Virus record (IMG/VR): IMGVR_UViG_3300036893_000049
Span: 21,260-85,259 of that record
Direction: 5' to 3' (one strand)
Source of the DNA: a virus
DNA length: 64,000 nucleotides
The number at the start of each line of letters is the position of its first letter. Positions within the stretch are counted from its first letter, which is position 1. The position numbers were made by a program, and so were the translations under genes. This document shows positions 3,646 through 44,942 of this stretch, piece after piece. A model generated the notes under the pieces. It worked only from the letters and a program-made list of their open reading frames with translations. It searched no databases and was not told the DNA's origin.

Positions 3646-3852
3646 CTATGCTGACGCGAAGCCGACCATTTCGCCGCGCCAGTAGTTGGCTGTCGCCGCG
3701 AAAAATGCCGCGTTATCCCGCGCCTGTTTCGCGTGTCCGGGTTGTCCTTCTTCGATTGCCAGGACGGCGCGGCCCTCGGCATGGGCTGCCCAGAGATCGT
3801 ATTGAGCGATCCATGCCGGGACGCGATCAAGGTTGATTTCGTTGAGTGTCAT
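3646..3852 (-). CDS. first gene of the leftward accessory operon
   Basis: AGGAGG RBS, ATG 3852. Confidence 0.65.
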   Translation of the reverse strand: MTLNEINLDRVPAWIAQYDLWAAHAEGRAVLAIEEGQPGHAKQARDNAAFFAATANYWRGEMVGFASA

Positions 3853-4003
3853 CTCATCCTCCTATCCAAAACCCCAGGACGATCCGGGGGCTTGAGAGAG
3901 TAGGCTGTCCGGGAGGTCCCGATCTTGAAGCAGGCGTTAATCCTGCGAACGATCCGGGAGGCCCGATCGCCTGTCGTCCGGCGATAGGGGGAATGTAGCG
4001 AAA

Positions 4004-4337: not shown

Positions 4338-5560
4338 GGGTGGTCATGCAGGCCACGAAAGGACGGCTCTACGGCGGCGGACTCGGAACCGTCGCGCGGA
4401 TCGGCGGCCAGTGCCGGGCCGTGTGGAACCTGTTCGTTGCGGAGAGCGCCGAACGCTATAAGGCCGAGGGCAAGTTCGTTTTCTATGCTGAAATGTCGGC
4501 TCGGCTGCCGAAGTTGTTGAAGGAAGACGCGCGCCTTGCCGGGTTGCCGCACCGCGCGGCACAGATGACCGTGCAGAAGCTGGATCGGGCGTTGCGCGAC
4601 TGCGCCAAGAGCAAGGGGAAGGCGCGACGCGGCTTTCCGCGCTTCAAGAAATACGCTGACAGGTCCGACGCTTTTTCGTTCGTTGGCCGCGAGGTCCGCG
4701 TTGAACCGGGTCGCATCCGACTGCCGAAGGTCGGCTGGCTTCGCGTGCGCGGCATGACCTTGCCCGATGGCGCTGACATGAAGCAGGTCGCCGTGACGCA
4801 AGAGCCGAATGGCTGGCACGTCTCCATCCAGTTCGAAGCCGCGCCGAAGCTCTACGCCGTGCCGACGCTTCCTGCGGTCGGTATCGACGGCGGCTTGATC
4901 CATCTGGCGACACTGAGCGACGGCACCCTCATTCCGCATCCACGGCTTGCCAGGAAGGCCGCGAAGCGGCTGCGCCGGTTGAACCGGGAACGCGATCGGC
5001 GGCGCAAGGGCAGCGTGAACCGCCGACGCACCGTGGCCAAACTCGGGCGCGCACATCGCGCGCTGGGCAACGCCCGCAAGGATGCGATGCACAAGGCCAC
5101 CCGGAAACTGGTGGACACATACGGCGGCTTCGCCGTCGAGGATTTGAGCCTGCGAGGCATGATGCGGACCCGGATGGCGGGTTCGCTGGCCGATGCTGGG
5201 CTGGGAGAGTTCGTCAGGACGCTCCACTACAAGGCCGATTGGGCGGGGCGAACGTGGCACGTTCACGGGCGCTTCGAACGCAGCACGGGCGTCTGTCCGG
5301 ACTGCGGCCAAGTCGGCGGCAAGCTTGCCCTGTCCGTCAGGAGTTGGGTTTGCGATAGCTGCGGCGCGGTTCACGATCGCGACGTTGCCGCCGCCAGGGT
5401 GATCCTGGCTGGCGCGGTACTGCCAGTGGGGCAGGAACCGTCGGCTGCGATGCCGAGAAAGCGAGGCGCTGCCGCTCGTGGCGGGGATCGGGCATCCGCT
5501 CGGTCTAGTCACGGCGGGCCACCTCCGAATGTTGCCGATGCTCTGCCGGAGGCTGCATGA
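4334..5560 (+). CDS. tnpB: IS200/IS605-family RNA-guided endonuclease TnpB (copy 1)
   Basis: GFPRFK; RuvC motifs GIDGG, AVEDL, HDRDVAAA; zinc finger CPDCG/CDSCG; no tnpA adjacent. Confidence 0.95.
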   Translation: MRVVMQATKGRLYGGGLGTVARIGGQCRAVWNLFVAESAERYKAEGKFVFYAEMSARLPKLLKEDARLAGLPHRAAQMTVQKLDRALRDCAKSKGKARRGFPRFKKYADRSDAFSFVGREVRVEPGRIRLPKVGWLRVRGMTLPDGADMKQVAVTQEPNGWHVSIQFEAAPKLYAVPTLPAVGIDGGLIHLATLSDGTLIPHPRLARKAAKRLRRLNRERDRRRKGSVNRRRTVAKLGRAHRALGNARKDAMHKATRKLVDTYGGFAVEDLSLRGMMRTRMAGSLADAGLGEFVRTLHYKADWAGRTWHVHGRFERSTGVCPDCGQVGGKLALSVRSWVCDSCGAVHDRDVAAARVILAGAVLPVGQEPSAAMPRKRGAAARGGDRASARSSHGGPPPNVADALPEAA

Positions 5561-38286: not shown

Positions 38287-39648
38287 TCAGTCTTTCCAAG
38301 GATCATCGATTCCGTCTCCCGCCATCGCCACGGCGAATGGCCGTAGTGTGTGCAGCACTCGCGTCGAGGCCGCGTGGTGAGCCAGCACTTCCGGCAAACG
38401 GCGATAAGCCATCGGACTTTCGTCCAGACCGCCGCCCGCCAGTAACACGCCGCGATCTTGCAACCACGCCTCCATCTGGGTACGGGTGAACGTGCGAATC
38501 GCTTGTTTCCGCCCGAATAATCGCCCGGCACCGTGGACCGTCGAGTAGAGCGCATCCTTCGCTTCTTGGCAGTCAACACCTTCCAAGATCACAGCGTCAT
38601 CGCCCATGGAGCCGCCAACAAAGCCCTTTTGGCCGGGGAAGGCTGGAGTTGCACCTTTTCGAACTACCCAGAGATCACGGCCGTTATGCGTTTCGCGCCA
38701 CGCGTAATTATGATGGTTGTGAACCATTTCGGTCACTGAGCCGCCGATGATCTGGCGAACACGTTCAACCACCCATTCACGACCGGCGTAAGAGTACCTT
38801 CCGGCCAATTGCATCGCCGCGATATAACGGCGGCCGACTTCACTATCTTCATCGACCACGGCGGGTGCAACGTTCATGCCGTCTTTCCCGCCAGCCGCTT
38901 TCAGATATCGTGTCGCGCTGGTGTGACCGAAACCGCGAGAACCGAAGTGGACGCCGATCCAAACGAAATCGTCTTCATCTCGCATGAGATCGACATAATG
39001 GTTGCCTGATCCGACCGTTCCTAGCTGTGCGACGGCTTTTGAGCGGTATTCACCCATGTCGGATTCGCGCCATGCGTCGCTGTCGTCAAAGAGTTCATGT
39101 TCCACGCGCTCCTCATTGGTGCGACCGACGCCGAATGAAATAACCTTGCGGACATCTTCAAGGATTGGATGGATACGATCCTGGATATCGGAAAATGGCG
39201 TGTCCAGGCGAACGGCCATGTTGCCGCATCCGATATCGAAACCGACACCGGAAATGCTGATCTGCTTTTCATAAGCGATCACGCCCCCAACAGGTTGCGC
39301 GTAACCAAGATGACCGTCCGCGCAAATCACGCCCTTAACCGCGTTGCCGATAGCCATGCAGTTTCGCATCTGAGCGATGGTGTTGGGATCGTGATCGCCG
39401 AAGATCGTCAGAGGACTGTCGCGGAATCGTTCCTCCTGCGGGCGCAGATTGACGATGCTGGCCGCGAGGTCCGCTGCCTCCCTGGCGTTTTGCGCCGAAC
39501 GGGCAGCATCGCGGAAATCGCACCATGCGGGCATACCCCGCTCACTGCCGGGTTTCGCGACACGCGAATCCGGATCGATGCCTTTAGCCTGGCACATTTC
39601 GCGTGCGGCGACTTCCAATGGATCGGCTCGACGTGTTGAAACAGACAT
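38287..39648 (-). CDS. rtcB: RtcB-family RNA ligase with N-terminal extension
   Basis: ADGHLGY, VGFDIGCG, GTVGSGNHY, HFGSRGFG, HNHHNY, RKGATPA, HGAGR, DESPMAYR. Confidence 0.95.
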   Translation of the reverse strand: MSVSTRRADPLEVAAREMCQAKGIDPDSRVAKPGSERGMPAWCDFRDAARSAQNAREAADLAASIVNLRPQEERFRDSPLTIFGDHDPNTIAQMRNCMAIGNAVKGVICADGHLGYAQPVGGVIAYEKQISISGVGFDIGCGNMAVRLDTPFSDIQDRIHPILEDVRKVISFGVGRTNEERVEHELFDDSDAWRESDMGEYRSKAVAQLGTVGSGNHYVDLMRDEDDFVWIGVHFGSRGFGHTSATRYLKAAGGKDGMNVAPAVVDEDSEVGRRYIAAMQLAGRYSYAGREWVVERVRQIIGGSVTEMVHNHHNYAWRETHNGRDLWVVRKGATPAFPGQKGFVGGSMGDDAVILEGVDCQEAKDALYSTVHGAGRLFGRKQAIRTFTRTQMEAWLQDRGVLLAGGGLDESPMAYRRLPEVLAHHAASTRVLHTLRPFAVAMAGDGIDDPWKD

Positions 39649-39669
39649 AACTCTCTCCTTCTATAAGGC

Positions 39670-39745
39670 ATCGCCGCACGGGACTCGAACCCGCCGCCTA
39701 TCCGTTAGTGGCCACTGTGCAGTTCCGACGTTTGCACACGGCGAT
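39670..39745 (-). ncRNA. tRNA-like structured element between the nucleotidyltransferase and rtcB
   Basis: Closing stem ATCGCCGT/GCGGCGAT, T arm GCGGG-TTCGAGT-CCCGT, stem GTGCA/TGCAC; no canonical anticodon arm. Confidence 0.6.
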
Positions 39746-39751
39746 ATGGGA

Positions 39752-40732
39752 TCACAAAATCGCGGTTCGATAAGCATCCTTCACGATAGCGTCGATCACG
39801 CCGTGGTCCGGCGTCTCGGGCAGTGCGGATACCTCCTCCTCTGCTTCTACTCGTTCCAACAAATCCTCGATTTCCTCCGCGACGGCGGCATAGGGCAGTT
39901 CGCCTTTCTTGATCGCCAGAATATGCTTGGCGTTCAGCAGTGGAAAGGTGATATGGCCAGATCGCAACAGTTCCAGAGCCTCGCCGCCAACTCGCACCGC
40001 ATGAGAAAGCGCCTTCCAATCGACGTTTTCGTTACGTTCGGCCTGCAACGCGCGGGCGCCATATTCGTCCAGTAGTCGAACATAGATCGCGCGCGTATCC
40101 TTCAACGATGTGAAGAACGGTGCCTTACGGTTACAGCATTCAAGATGCGGGATCGGATCGGGACGGCTTGGATGCGGGATAAATATGATCGCGGTATGAT
40201 CGAGTTTATGTTCCGCGATGAACGTAGGCAGCGTGTCTGCCGCGATCTCCAACTTTGCCAGATGCCCGTATTCCATGATGGCCTGGTCAAACCAATTCAC
40301 GATCTCGCGGGCGGCATGAACGCGCGAGCCTTTGATTCCATATTTGTTTGCCTGAGTTCGGCAATAGCCAATGAAGCTGGCGGCACGACGGCTCAACAAC
40401 TGATGGCGACAATCCCAGATACGGCCCCAGATCGGATCGGGATCGCATGTCATAGCCCATCGTGGCGCAAACAGCATGTCCAGAGCAACGGTCTGCCCTT
40501 CTGCCAGCAATGACAAATACCGATGGAGCGCATAAGCCTCCCGGTCGATATCGCCCGCGACGTTCTTTTCGCCAGTCTGCTTGGGTCGTTTGTCTGTTAC
40601 CGTCGCTTTAACGCGTTGCAATAGGATCGCGTCCGCGTCTGGCACAAACACGGTTTTGTAATCCACGTCCGACGCTGGCGTGGACGTGCCGTAGAGGTGC
40701 GAGCCAAACTTGATCTCGACAAGGGTTTTCAC
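39752..40732 (-). CDS. Pol-beta superfamily nucleotidyltransferase (RlaP/Nuc-transf-like)
   Basis: GSHLYGTSTPASDVDY, DWKALSHAVR, ILAIKKG. Confidence 0.9.
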   Translation of the reverse strand: MKTLVEIKFGSHLYGTSTPASDVDYKTVFVPDADAILLQRVKATVTDKRPKQTGEKNVAGDIDREAYALHRYLSLLAEGQTVALDMLFAPRWAMTCDPDPIWGRIWDCRHQLLSRRAASFIGYCRTQANKYGIKGSRVHAAREIVNWFDQAIMEYGHLAKLEIAADTLPTFIAEHKLDHTAIIFIPHPSRPDPIPHLECCNRKAPFFTSLKDTRAIYVRLLDEYGARALQAERNENVDWKALSHAVRVGGEALELLRSGHITFPLLNAKHILAIKKGELPYAAVAEEIEDLLERVEAEEEVSALPETPDHGVIDAIVKDAYRTAIL

Positions 40733-41490: not shown

Positions 41491-41982
41491 TCATACCGCC
41501 CCCATCTTTCTCAAAAAATCCCGGGCGACCTCCGCGACCGGCAGCGGGTGAGTGGCCCCCTCCGCTACATCCGGCTTGCTCCGGTCCTTAGCCGTATGCT
41601 CGATCAGACCAAGTATCGATTGTTCCCGCAACGCTTCACGCAGTGCAGGTGGCGAAATGTCATTGGCCTTGGCGAGACCATTAGATATGGTACGAAATCC
41701 CCGCCGCGCCTGACTACGAATACGGGCACGAGCCGTTTGACCGATTTTGTGCAGATCGTCAGGAACGACGCGTTTATATCCAACACGGCGCACGGAAGCG
41801 AATACCGCGCCATTTTCTCGTTCAACGACAAAAATCGCGCGATAAAGAAGATACCGGCATACGTTAATGTTCCGGCCGATTGCCTTACTGAAATCGTCGA
41901 ATGTCAACGTTTCGCCAAAAGGACAAGCGGCGAGAAGGTCCGCGAGGATGCGGGTGTCCTGGTGTAACTCCATGACGATCAT
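41491..41982 (-). CDS. hypothetical protein with winged-helix-like N-terminus, downstream of array B
   Basis: AGGAG RBS at the end of array B; GETLTFDDFSKAIG...SVRRVGYKRV. Confidence 0.7.
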   Translation of the reverse strand: MIVMELHQDTRILADLLAACPFGETLTFDDFSKAIGRNINVCRYLLYRAIFVVERENGAVFASVRRVGYKRVVPDDLHKIGQTARARIRSQARRGFRTISNGLAKANDISPPALREALREQSILGLIEHTAKDRSKPDVAEGATHPLPVAEVARDFLRKMGAV

Positions 41983-41999
41983 GGGAAGGCTCCTGTATT

Positions 42000-42074
42000 G
42001 TGTCGTGCTGTGCGGTGGTGTGGCGTGACGTGTCGTGCGGTGCCGTGGTGTGGAGTGGTGTGCTGTGGTGTGAT
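42000..42074 (-). repeat. array B: 15 units of invariant CAC plus variable NN (GTG-NN on +)
   Basis: + strand NN series: TC CT CG GT GC AC TC CG CC GT GA GT CT GT AT; GTG intact in all 15 units. Confidence 0.95.
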
Positions 42075-42080
42075 GATTTT

Positions 42081-42122
42081 GGCAGTCCCAACAGAAGCGA
42101 GAACGATTCCGTTGGGATTGCC
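42081..42122 (-). other. long hairpin 5' of array B
   Basis: GGCAATCCCAACGGAATCG-TTCT-CGCTTCTGTTGGGACTGCC. Confidence 0.8.
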
Positions 42123-42128
42123 GATGAT

Positions 42129-42143
42129 GTGCCGTGGCGTGGT
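42129..42143 (-). repeat. mini-array of 3 GTG-NN units right after the Cas7-like stop codon
   Basis: GTGCC GTGGC GTGGT. Confidence 0.7.
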
Positions 42144-42144
42144 A

Positions 42145-42738
42145 TCATGCAACCATCTGGCGATTATCCTGCCAGACCAGTTTATCCAGAACGAAGCGGC
42201 CATTGTGACCGCCATTTTGTGGCCGGAACTGGCCGATTCCAATAAAGAGGCCAGCAAGTTCCACCATGTCCCGGAAAACGGGCTCGACGATGATCGGGTC
42301 CAGGATGATGATTTCGAATGTCGATGACCATTCCCGAACCACGGGAAAGCGGCGCACGACTCGTTTGCCTGAACCCCGGACACCATCGGCGTTGGCTGAG
42401 ATCGTAACCATCATCGCCTCTGAGGGATCGATATTCAGGATTGGTGCGGCGGGGATCATCACGCCGCTGGTGAACTTGGCGGACCATGTGGCCTTCCCCT
42501 GGCCCGGGATTTGGATTTTTGAATATTTCGCCGCCGCGATCAGGCATTGGTGAAAACCGTGCGGTGGAATAATGATGGTTTTTTTGCCGTCGTGTTCCTC
42601 GATGGACAATTTGCTACGCCATGTCCTGGCGTCATAGGCATCTGGCGACTCGCCTTCGAGCCGCGGGTCATTGTGTTGCCGGGACTGACTGTACGGCGCG
42701 GTGCCACGGAGGGTCAGTTGAGCGATGGTGTATTGCAT
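42145..42738 (-). CDS. stand-alone Cas7/RAMP-like RNA-binding protein
   Basis: N-terminal strand QLTLRGTAPY; IIIPPHGFHQCLIAAA resembling the RAMP IPxxxxKG helix; C-terminal G-rich loop AGLFIGIGQFRPQNGGHNGRF; no other cas genes in the window. Confidence 0.75.
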   Translation of the reverse strand: MQYTIAQLTLRGTAPYSQSRQHNDPRLEGESPDAYDARTWRSKLSIEEHDGKKTIIIPPHGFHQCLIAAAKYSKIQIPGQGKATWSAKFTSGVMIPAAPILNIDPSEAMMVTISANADGVRGSGKRVVRRFPVVREWSSTFEIIILDPIIVEPVFRDMVELAGLFIGIGQFRPQNGGHNGRFVLDKLVWQDNRQMVA

Positions 42739-42755
42739 GGAAGGTTCCTTGGCTG

Positions 42756-42860
42756 GTGAAGTGATGTGTCGTGGAGTGGCGTGATGTGTCGTGGAGTGGC
42801 GTGGTGTGGCGTGGAGTGGCGTGGAGTGGCGTGGCGTGATGTGATGTGCGGCGCGGTGGC
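42756..42860 (-). repeat. array A: 21 units of invariant CAC plus variable NN (GTG-NN on +)
   Basis: + strand NN series: AA AT TC GA GC AT TC GA GC GT GC GA GC GA GC GC AT AT CG CG GC; one GCG variant at 42851. Confidence 0.95.
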
Positions 42861-42872
42861 CTCGCGGCCAGT

Positions 42873-42926
42873 TTCGTGATTACACGAATTGCCGGTTGAC
42901 TGTCAACCCATGATTACGGTAATCAT
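42873..42926. promoter_or_regulatory. divergent promoter/operator with three palindromes
   Basis: TTCGTG-ATTA-CACGAA; GGTTGAC-T-GTCAACC (TTGACA on -, TTGACT on +); ATGATTAC-G-GTAATCAT. Confidence 0.7.
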
Positions 42927-42931
42927 CGCCC

Positions 42932-43153
42932 ATGAGCCGAGAAATCTTGCTTCCCGAAGTTATCACCGTTCGGTTGCCAGCGGGCACACTTACCGCCCTG
43001 GATGCCTTATGTAAGACGGCTGAGCGGCGCGCGGATGTCGCTCGGGCGATTCTGGTGGGGGGAGTGGCGGAATCTCCCGCCCCTGACGCCGCCGGTTCCC
43101 GCTATCGACCCCGCCGGGCCGGGGCAACCACAGGGACCACGCCCCATGACTGA
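42932..43153 (+). CDS. ribbon-helix-helix regulator, probably leaderless
   Basis: VITVRLPAGTLTALDAL...RADVARAIL. Confidence 0.7.
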   Translation: MSREILLPEVITVRLPAGTLTALDALCKTAERRADVARAILVGGVAESPAPDAAGSRYRPRRAGATTGTTPHD

Positions 43154-43348
43154 CTCCCCGCCCCCCGTCGAGAGCGTCTGGCCCGACCATCTGACCTTAT
43201 GGTTTGGCCCCCGGCCCGACTCTGAGGATGGACGCGTCGAAGAGCCCGTAGAGCCGGATCGTGAGCCGGAACCCCGCCCAGACCGCGACGAGGATGGGCA
43301 TGTCGCGATGTGGACGCGGGAGCCGCAAGTCGAGCGGGGGGATGCGCC

Positions 43349-43762
43349 GTGACCAGTATCTGGGGCAAACAGGAAAAACAGTTCAGATTGCACCGGGCAC
43401 AGAACGGCCTTTGCGCGCTGTGCGGAGATGACCTGAAACTGGCCGAGGCGACTTTCGATCACATCATCCCGAAGTCGAAACACGGGCCTTCAACGATTGA
43501 TAACCTTCAACTGGCACATAGATCGTGCAACAACAAGAAGGGCGATAAGATTGTCGCGCCGCTCCAACTATCGGGGAAAATTCGCAAGCGCGTGTTGCAC
43601 GCGCTGGTGATGGAGCGGCTTTGCCGTCGAGACATTGACGAACGAAAGGGAAATTATATAGTTGATTCCCTTCGGCAATCTGGTAATATTGCCGGATCGG
43701 GTGGCGCTACCAACGCCAGTCCCGATCCTGACCTCGACGGAAGGTTACTCCGCGTTGGCTGA
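43349..43762 (+). CDS. HNH endonuclease; C-terminus altered by the insertion at 43649
   Basis: CALCG...TFDHIIPKSKHG...DNLQLAHRSCNNKKG. Confidence 0.9.
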   Translation: MTSIWGKQEKQFRLHRAQNGLCALCGDDLKLAEATFDHIIPKSKHGPSTIDNLQLAHRSCNNKKGDKIVAPLQLSGKIRKRVLHALVMERLCRRDIDERKGNYIVDSLRQSGNIAGSGGATNASPDPDLDGRLLRVG

Positions 43763-44942
43763 CCCTATCGTAGCGACTCAGATGCTCACATGGAAGTGTC
43801 GTTTGCTCCCAAGCAAAGGCCAGCATGACAAATTGCGCGCTGCACTAAGCCATACCCGCGACCTCTACAATGCCGCCTTGGCTGAGCGCATCGACTGTTA
43901 CCGGAAAACCGGCAAAGGGCGCTCTTTTTTCGACCAGGCTAAGGGCCTTACCGAACTCCGCGCCGATCCGGGCTGGGCAACCTATTCTGTCGCCATGCAA
44001 CGCTGGCCGCTGAAACAAGTCGATCTTGCCTTCGCCGCCTTCTTTCGACGCATCAAGGCGCGGGACGGAAAAGCCGGATTTCCGCGATTTCGGGGCCGCG
44101 AATGGTTCAAGACGTTCGGTTTTTCGGATCGCGGCGGCTGGCGCGTGGACGGCAACCGGCTGCGGCTGAAGGGCATAGGGTCTGTTCGTATTCACCTCCA
44201 TCGCCCCCTCCCTTCTGTGCCAATCGCCTGTAAGGTGAAACGCGAGGGCCGGAATTGGTATGCGCTGCTGACCGTCGAGACGCCTTGCGCGGCCTTCCAC
44301 CCCGGCCCGGCTGTCGGAATCGACATGGGCATCACGACCATGGCGGCGCTTTCGACCGGCGAACTGATCGCCAACGCACGCCCAGTCAAGCGGGCTGAGA
44401 GAGAAATGCGGAGACGCCAGAGACAGATCGCGCGATGCAAGAGAGGATCGAATCGTCGCCGCGAGGTCAAGGCGCGGGTGGCATCGCTGCACGCCAAGAT
44501 CACCCGGACGCGCGAAACGCATCTGCATCAGGTGTCGGCATCGCTCACGGCCCGGTTCGGCACGATTGCCATCGAGAAGTTGAACGTCAAGGGCCTGGCT
44601 GGCGGAATGCTCGCCAAGCAGGTCAATGACGTTGCATGGGGTCGCTTCATAGGTATGCTGCGCTATAAGGCTGCAAGGGCCGGTGGCACAGTGATTGAGG
44701 TTGATCCTCGCGGAACAAGTCAGACCTGCCCTGAGTGCGGCGTCATCAAGAAAAAGGAACTCTCGCAACGCGTCCACCGATGCGATTGCGGCTGTATCCT
44801 TGATCGCGATGTCGCCGCTGCGAAGGTCATTCTAATCCGGGCCGGGAATGGTCCGGGAGGCCGCAACGCTGGTGCTACAAGGCGTGGTCTCGAAAAGATA
44901 TGCGAGGCTGCCTGATGTCAGGTAGTCAAGTATATAATTCCC
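43649..44942 (+). mobile_element. non-autonomous element with IS1595-type ends carrying only tnpB
   Basis: 17-bp TIRs GGAAATTATATAGTTGA / GGGAATTATATACTTGA (15/17 identical); AACGAAAG duplicated at 43641-43648 and 44943-44950. Confidence 0.85.
43755..44915 (+). CDS. tnpB: TnpB RNA-guided endonuclease (copy 2); TTG start inferred
   Basis: LYNAALAER, GFPRFR, GIDMG, IAIEKL, TSQTCPECG, CDCG, DRDVAAA. Confidence 0.95.
   Translation: MADPIVATQMLTWKCRLLPSKGQHDKLRAALSHTRDLYNAALAERIDCYRKTGKGRSFFDQAKGLTELRADPGWATYSVAMQRWPLKQVDLAFAAFFRRIKARDGKAGFPRFRGREWFKTFGFSDRGGWRVDGNRLRLKGIGSVRIHLHRPLPSVPIACKVKREGRNWYALLTVETPCAAFHPGPAVGIDMGITTMAALSTGELIANARPVKRAEREMRRRQRQIARCKRGSNRRREVKARVASLHAKITRTRETHLHQVSASLTARFGTIAIEKLNVKGLAGGMLAKQVNDVAWGRFIGMLRYKAARAGGTVIEVDPRGTSQTCPECGVIKKKELSQRVHRCDCGCILDRDVAAAKVILIRAGNGPGGRNAGATRRGLEKICEAA

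Follow-up and report, generated by a model that had tools for sequence, protein, structure and literature searches.

VIPR (Viral Interference Programmable Repeat) systems, first described in 2026 and proposed to be older than CRISPR, read DNA under RNA guidance by means of a gapped code. These systems combine a lone RAMP protein, Vipr, with vrRNAs made of alternating GGY and NN blocks (bioRxiv 10.64898/2026.04.26.720920) and silence competing phages and satellites (10.64898/2026.04.26.720920). Vipr is a minimal RAMP built from an RRM core, a glycine-rich loop, and a thumb. One Vipr protomer binds each unit, hiding GGY and presenting NN, and experiments have shown that the NN pair with double-stranded DNA with one target base, usually the wobble base, being skipped (10.64898/2026.04.26.720920; 10.64898/2026.04.26.720927). 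In the Vipr of Escherichia phage SUSP1, R179 stacks on Y3, and D177 and W178 read G1 and G2 (bioRxiv 10.64898/2026.04.26.720927). The canonical vrRNA is an RNA of approximately 100 nt that co-purifies with Vipr and carries an invariable, structured 3′ tail, which is a pseudoknot in the SUSP1 clade. The VIPR discovery paper allows the variants NNNGG, YNNNG, and NNNNG besides GGY, and a genomic-language-model survey reports, near Vipr-like folds, 21 clusters in which a different triplet is fixed (e.g., GAC/NN, CAC/NN, WGT/NN, and TGH/NN; bioRxiv 10.64898/2026.10.21.760802).

The window analysed here, a stretch of 64,000 nucleotides, belongs to a complete 85,259-bp virus with direct terminal repeats; this peat phage recurs across several peat metagenomes, and no habitat claims are drawn from metagenome runs with small sampled-word shares. 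Positions 42000–42074 hold, on the plus strand, 15 head-to-tail perfect GTGNN units (array B), in which the variable dinucleotides follow the order TC CT CG GT GC AC TC CG CC GT GA GT CT GT AT, corresponding to AT AC AG AC TC AC GG CG GA GT GC AC CG AG GA on the minus (sense) strand; nine of these dinucleotides are distinct. Five phased GTG triplets matched the window 29 times, as compared to 0.03 matches expected from dinucleotide-preserving shuffles, and all 29 matches lay inside array B or inside a second tract (array A) at 42756–42850; a scan of the complete 85,259-bp genome identified these two tracts only. Sequence and phased-triplet statistics thus confirm the description in an earlier note on this DNA, i.e., 15 perfect GTG units separated by the listed dinucleotides of nine kinds. 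Tandem Repeats Finder (TRF) assigned the tract a period of 30 nt; because the NN letters of array B at lag 6 are no more alike than in shuffled NN order (7/18 matches, p = 0.21), this period is an effect of the fixed triplets, and the further claim that no block is duplicated inside array B is borne out. Array B is a genuine, non-random, functional-looking element, and it probably represents the guide-RNA (vrRNA) gene of a phage-encoded VIPR system of the CAC type.

Array A consists of 19 perfect units, read as CAC-NN on the minus strand. In contrast to array B, it draws on few kinds of NN (mostly GC, GA, and TC), and it contains an exact 20-bp tandem duplication (42761–42800) of the four units AT TC GA GC; array A may consist of two guides that have fused or are decaying, or may serve as a regulatory leader.

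On the minus strand, the features of the locus follow the order GC hairpin, array A, ribosome-binding site and vipr, mini-tract, stem-loop, array B, and ribosome-binding site and vap-like gene. The GC hairpin (GGCC-GCGA-GGCC, 42857–42870) is located on the 5′ side of array A, which lies in the leader of vipr and ends approximately 6 nt before the AGGAAC ribosome-binding site of this gene. The vipr gene (42145–42738) encodes a 197-aa, lone RAMP/Cas7-like protein with the G-loop GIGQFRPQNGGHNGRF; just after its stop codon, a mini-tract of three units (ACCAC GCCAC GGCAC, 42129–42143) could be read from the sequence. Array B is preceded on the sense strand by a 42-nt stem-loop (42081–42122), which is located downstream of the vipr stop codon; the 146-nt stretch containing this stem-loop has a minimum free energy of −34.5 kcal/mol (z = −4.1). 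The predicted vrRNA guide tract, array B, comprises 15 perfect CAC-NN units on this strand and is followed by a degenerate 16th unit, AAUAC (41995–41999, likewise read from the sequence), which directly abuts the AGGAG ribosome-binding site (41990–41994) of the vap-like accessory gene (41491–41982); the 163-aa product of this gene has an N-terminal winged helix and long helices. At the end of each array, a similar motif runs directly into the start codon, AAGGAACCUUCC-AUG before vipr and ACAGGAGCCUUCCC-AUG before the vap-like gene, with these array-end/start-codon motifs located at 42739–42750 and 41983–41994, respectively, on the minus strand. The terminal GA and AA units at the array ends are only semi-conserved.

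Upstream of the cassette, in divergent orientation, are an ORF of 73 aa without family match (42932–43153, plus strand), an HNH gene, and TnpB; at 43310–44915, the TnpB (OrfB_IS605) ORF overlaps the 3′ end of the HNH endonuclease ORF. The divergent promoter region (42876–42926) contains three palindromes (CGTGATTACACG, GGTTGACTGTCAACC, and ATGATTACGGTAATCAT), and palindromes in the intergenic region shared with the 73-aa ORF include 42894–42908 and 42910–42926. The palindromes between array A and the 73-aa ORF are candidate operators, and the 73-aa protein is possibly a regulator of the cassette. Genes encoding an RNA-repair pair, an RlaP-type nucleotidyltransferase and an RtcB ligase, are located downstream in the same orientation as the cassette (38287–40732). 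A scan of the locus found no promoter or terminator consensus, and Rfam identified no family and no ribozyme in the locus or in seven related loci. The 64-kb window contains no CRISPR-like repeat-spacer array and a single RAMP gene.

The 197-aa protein could be assigned by profile and structure comparisons. Neither this protein nor the 163-aa protein had a match in Pfam, PHROGs gave no more than an unnamed family, and neither the locus nor the 197-aa protein had a BLAST match in the phage collection; the family of the 197-aa protein includes 1,037 relatives, and every named one is called hypothetical. A profile of 34 members matched the PDB entry 36pp, "SUSP1 Vipr protein" (E = 2.4e-6), with an alignment that spans the glycine-rich loop, and hhalign against SUSP1 Vipr gave a probability of 95.7% (E = 9e-9) over 129 columns, including the G-loop. 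An AlphaFold (AF2) model of the protein (pLDDT 93) was structurally closest to the Cas7 subunits found in CRISPR complexes of types VII and III (E between 1e-7 and 1e-5, TM 0.5–0.6). By sequence profile and predicted fold, the 197-aa protein is Vipr, a lone Cas7-like RAMP. The equivalent of SUSP1 R179, the arginine that holds Y3, is kept in the family. In the phage Vipr, the positions that read G1 and G2 in SUSP1 carry other residues (Q for D177 and F for W178); across the family, D177 is replaced by Q, R, A, F, or S, and W178 by F or Y. Covariation of the D177-equivalent G-loop residue with the fixed triplet revealed no simple code.

The vap gene of VIPR systems has been described as predicted DNA-binding (bioRxiv 10.64898/2026.04.26.720920). 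At least 18 relatives retain the 163-aa gene downstream of vipr, and the model of its product (pLDDT 92) presents a winged helix and long helices that match the folds of winged-helix regulators only weakly; the profile comparison with SUSP1 vap1 also gave weak similarity (hhalign 63%, E = 7e-5). The predicted winged-helix protein fits the published description of vap.

A link between tracts with diverse NN and the Vipr family was found from both directions. A scan of IMG/VR by the DNA pattern (GTGNN)x10 alone yielded 104 loci, including 44 with diverse and 60 with uniform NN; a Vipr homologue was found beside the tracts at 33 of the 44 diverse-NN loci, as compared to none of the 60 uniform-NN loci, which represent ordinary microsatellites or coding repeats. 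Conversely, among 40 bacterial-genome loci fetched by protein alone, i.e., without use of the tract pattern, 37 carried 5-nt periodic tracts in the vipr flanks, as compared to none in shuffled flanks. These data also bear on a very improbable explanation, in which the tracts, with their 5-bp period, would serve as DNA iterons or operators to which the winged-helix protein or the divergent small protein binds, or would be slippage-prone microsatellites. Uniform GTGNN tracts in IMG/VR never accompany the Vipr family (0/60) and diverse-NN tracts do; slippage would homogenise the units. An operator role has in its favour the location of array A in the divergent promoter region beside palindromes as well as the winged-helix domain of the partner protein; however, array B is located between two co-oriented genes rather than at a promoter, and the strand of the tract relative to vipr is the same at 33 of 33 loci, a constancy that a symmetric duplex site would not require.

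Relatives of the cassette often carry 4 to 11 tracts in series. The VIPR discovery paper mentions staggered arrays and arrays interspersed with hammerheads; the elements that separate the tracts of the relatives examined here matched no ribozyme family. One or two conserved hairpin elements, none of them named by Rfam, lie between successive tracts at four loci (L157, L146, L151, and L001). Another locus (L029, 5900–7400) presents 4+4 sub-arrays parted by a 12–14-nt ACAGUUUUCCAA linker; the idea that these sub-arrays form a type III toxin-antitoxin RNA array was rejected, since the protein fold is Cas7-like and not ToxN-like. Locus L070 contains two 17-unit arrays (3779–3863 and 4589–4673) with the common NN blocks GA CC CG .. 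.. TA.G CT and with single-letter differences outside these blocks, a pattern that would be expected if the pair were aimed at two alleles of one coding sequence.

The NN of these arrays show guide-like evolution with fast turnover. Two relatives (L100 and L077) with Vipr proteins that are 99% identical, encoded by genes with 93% nucleotide identity, have no tract in common, and the same is true for a second pair (L091 and L105; 97% identical Vipr, 96.6% identical gene); where the vipr genes are identical, all tracts are shared. RNA-library evidence, which consists of assembled contigs without strand or ends and may contain DNA, includes contigs from three peat samples (X17–X19) that match the vipr 3′ end exactly (42134–42271, 138 nt) and then run into GTGCT GTGAC GTGGA GTGCG GTGTC GTGGT, which replaces the mini-tract and the hairpin. 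It appears that strains of the phage carry different arrays immediately downstream of vipr.

The fixed unit, given as GTG on the plus strand in the earlier note, is better taken as minus-strand CAC. The array triplet, CAC or GTG on the other strand, fits neither canonical GGY nor the relaxed NNNGG, YNNNG, and NNNNG forms; it fits the noncanonical CAC/NN class (bioRxiv 10.64898/2026.10.21.760802). Since the genes are located on the minus strand, the functional unit is more likely NN-CAC on that strand. CAC is found on the vipr strand at 33 of 33 IMG/VR loci, and the SUSP1 tracts (GGY, i.e., YNNGG) are also located on the vipr strand. A comparison of 78 loci shows CAC, CGC, CTC, CnC, GAC, GnC, or canonical GGC as the fixed triplet of the vipr strand, with C as the third base in nearly all of them; canonical GGC-NN is carried on the vipr strand by two family members (L157 and L172). 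The near-invariance of C3, together with the kept R179, matches the published register G1 G2 Y3 N4 N5. Read in the sense direction, the tracts of relatives lead into U-runs or a terminator (L163 and L029), and the last sense-strand units are semi-conserved with AA or GA as NN. This sequence evidence suggests that the guide is probably the minus-strand CAC-NN RNA.

The guide of a VIPR system could also be transcribed from the plus strand, antisense to vipr, as GUG-NN with the hairpins at 42081–42122 and 42857–42870 serving as 3′ tails. On the plus strand, each array is indeed followed by a hairpin, which resembles the published arrangement of repeat tract and structured 3′ tail; the published motifs are G-rich, and one RNA-library contig (42771–42938) spans array A and continues into the start of the divergent plus-strand gene. 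An antisense guide is nevertheless unlikely, as the canonical GGY/GGC tracts of SUSP1, L157, and L172 are located on the vipr strand and as the triplets on the other strand would become GTG, GCG, GAG, GTC, and GCC, thereby losing the position-3 pyrimidine held by the R179 pocket. The U-runs and the terminator in L163 and L029 also follow the tracts on the sense strand, promoters would be needed inside the vap and vipr coding regions, where none were detected, and the October 2026 survey preprint (10.64898/2026.10.21.760802) gives the motif as CAC/NN.

Leader array A, vipr, the hairpin with array B, and the vap-like gene form one minus-strand cassette. By homology with the SUSP1 and Pseudomonas fulva systems, Vipr protomers would polymerise along the RNA, one per 5-nt unit, with the fixed triplet buried and the two variable bases exposed by the protein; the NN string would then pair with double-stranded DNA with every third target base skipped, and binding would silence transcription of a competing mobile element. 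The target format predicted for array B is NNxNNx... over 44 bp. Transcription of the minus strand, assembly of the filament on CAC, the skipping of one nucleotide, and the silencing of DNA are inferred here. Against this reading stand the negative target searches described below, the missing structured 3′ tail, the lack of a promoter or terminator consensus, and the replacement of the G1- and G2-reading residues.

The position of the arrays may also point to a role in cis. A Vipr filament on either tract would cover the adjoining ribosome-binding site. TRAP controls translation via triplet repeats with 2-nt spacers, and the triplet repeats of the arrays, with their 2-nt spacers, resemble this type of control. 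The tracts could act in cis only, in the leaders of the mRNAs for vipr and vap, e.g., as an unstructured C/A-rich translation enhancer, a Rho-loading site, or an autoregulatory landing pad on which Vipr would occlude the neighbouring ribosome-binding site; both arrays end 5–10 nt from a Shine-Dalgarno sequence without a separate 3′ tail, and the array A sense RNA does not exceed its shuffles in structure (z = +1.1). An exclusive leader role is quite improbable; a simple enhancer or rut site would require neither strict 5-nt phasing of hypervariable NN nor a full replacement of the NN at 97–99% Vipr identity, relatives carry up to 8–11 serial tracts that are not each followed by a gene, and homologous systems use such tracts as guides. 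Autoregulation and guide function are compatible and could coexist. A TRAP-like attenuator, a Rho-loading site, and a CA-rich enhancer, each considered as the main reading of the tracts, were dropped once the neighbouring gene had been recognised as vipr.

No structured 3′ tail follows the arrays at this locus; the sense strand runs into the ribosome-binding sites, and the hairpins are located 5′ of the tracts. A tentative proposal, which we consider doubtful in its full form, is that CAC-type Viprs re-specified the two purine pockets (from G1 G2 to C A) and kept the pyrimidine pocket, that their guides lack a 3′ tail and form part of the vipr and vap 5′ leaders, and that assembly on the nascent operon RNA may both mature the guides and stop translation of the two genes. 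A bolder version of this leader-guide reading holds that pairing follows a rule other than the published one (another skip length, or RNA instead of DNA as the target); such a rule would explain the lack of a target with a 1-nt skip.

Searches for the target of array B were carried out at several scales. As the target is a duplex and the NNxNN pattern is symmetric under reverse complement, these searches are independent of the guide strand. When 72 arrays were compared all-against-all with the 0.98 Mb of fetched loci, with skips of 0–3 nt and shuffled NN order as the control, no signal emerged, and neither did one emerge from a search of arrays A and B on 1.5 Mb of local loci under the same scheme; skips of 0 (the contiguous 30-mer), 2, and 3 were searched on local sequence only. 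IMG/VR was searched with exact 8-unit seeds of array B at unit offsets 2, 4, 5, and 7, which catch any run of at least 9 perfect units. These seeds led to 58 distinct loci (two seeds converged on each of two loci), with extensions that reached 10/15 units at best, which is well within chance by a binomial estimate for a collection of this size. With 13 units and up to 3 mismatches, there were no matches in 802 alphaproteobacterial genomes (one match for the reversed control) or in five related phage records; likewise, all 15 units with up to 3 mismatches had no match in five genomes that carry a relative of the cassette. Seeds from the arrays of the relatives L070 (including its first array) and L016 found nothing. 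The genome of the phage itself contains no self-target, as the best match covers 8/15 units and is out of frame in the terminase gene; the VIPR papers likewise report no self-target for other systems.

The best match to array B with a 1-nt skip covers 10/15 units, including nine consecutive units, in frame, and is located in L192 (929–1567, minus strand); the same sequence is present in L188. The 212-aa ORF concerned (...DLPDTSTGRDVATLLERGDISGSSFGF...) presumably resembles an HK97-type prohead protease, and the genome of the phage itself has no Peptidase_S78 gene. A match of 10/15 units is estimated to occur hundreds of times by chance in a collection of this size, and we treat it as a lead, not as support.

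Two target formats had been proposed in the earlier note, namely a contiguous 30-mer and a gapped pattern that skips the wobble base. The contiguous form is not the format expected under the published VIPR rule. The gapped form (TCnCTnCGn...) agrees, by homology, with the published 1-nt-skip format, and the part of the proposal that concerns an actual target drew no match for array B in the searches run. The check suggested there, a search with the NN string at gaps of 0–3 nt as compared to shuffled order, gave no signal locally, and the 1-nt-skip searches of phage and alphaproteobacterial sequences (exact seeds or up to 3 mismatches) found no target. As for codon phase, the partial match of 10/15 units (L192/L188) is in frame and the partial match of 8/15 units (terminase) is out of frame.

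VIPR is of interest as a programmable repressor, and the locus described here provides a clean natural example of a CAC scaffold in a complete peat phage. The graded series GGC, GnC, GAC, CnC, CGC, CTC, and CAC could reveal how the protein reads the scaffold bases and could show which residues to change for orthogonal guide/protein pairs; the CAC locus leaves the general picture of VIPR unchanged.

Among more distant systems, TRAP binds (G/U)AG-NN(N) repeats in Bacillus leaders, i.e., phased triplets with 2-nt spacers located by the Shine-Dalgarno sequence. The phage arrays are similar in that they also consist of phased triplets with 2-nt spacers beside a Shine-Dalgarno sequence; however, no TRAP-like protein is present, the associated protein being a RAMP, and the spacers of TRAP sites are not hypervariable guides. 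The Class 1 CRISPR filaments (Cas7, Csm3, Cmr4, and type VII Cas7) have the same fold as Vipr, and both use one protomer per guide repeat, with a thumb that breaks pairing periodically. Unlike these systems, the phage window contains no repeat-spacer array and no other cas genes, and the guide would be encoded directly rather than acquired as spacers; the period also differs, with 5 nt and 2 paired bases in VIPR as compared to 6 nt and 5 paired bases in Class 1 CRISPR.

The closest characterised relatives are the Type II VIPR systems of Escherichia phage SUSP1 and a Pseudomonas fulva prophage (10.64898/2026.04.26.720920,.720927, and 10.64898/2026.10.15.759431), which have the same two-gene phage cassette of vipr and a small DNA-binding vap and a homologous Vipr, including the G-loop. 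Their tracts comprise 9–16 units, as compared to 15 and 19 units in the phage arrays, and in both cases the tracts flank vipr on its strand and consist of three fixed and two hypervariable bases. The phage locus differs in that its triplet is CAC and not GGY, with the G1- and G2-reading residues replaced (D177 by Q and W178 by F), and in that its arrays, known here from sequence alone, abut ribosome-binding sites and have 5′ hairpins in place of a 3′ pseudoknot tail. With the noncanonical VIPR-like clusters (10.64898/2026.10.21.760802), the locus shares the five-nt entropy period, the fixed CAC, the variable NN, and a neighbouring Vipr-like fold, and it most likely belongs to a cluster of this kind. 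The VIPR class and its CAC/NN variant are already present in the 2026 preprints, and the element is not new in kind. As compared to the survey, which is a computational listing without a strand argument, C3 invariance, array turnover, or target searches, the present analysis adds the strand and register argument from the near-invariant C3 series, the two-way association statistics, the turnover of NN, the leader-embedded architecture without a 3′ tail, and a defined negative target search.
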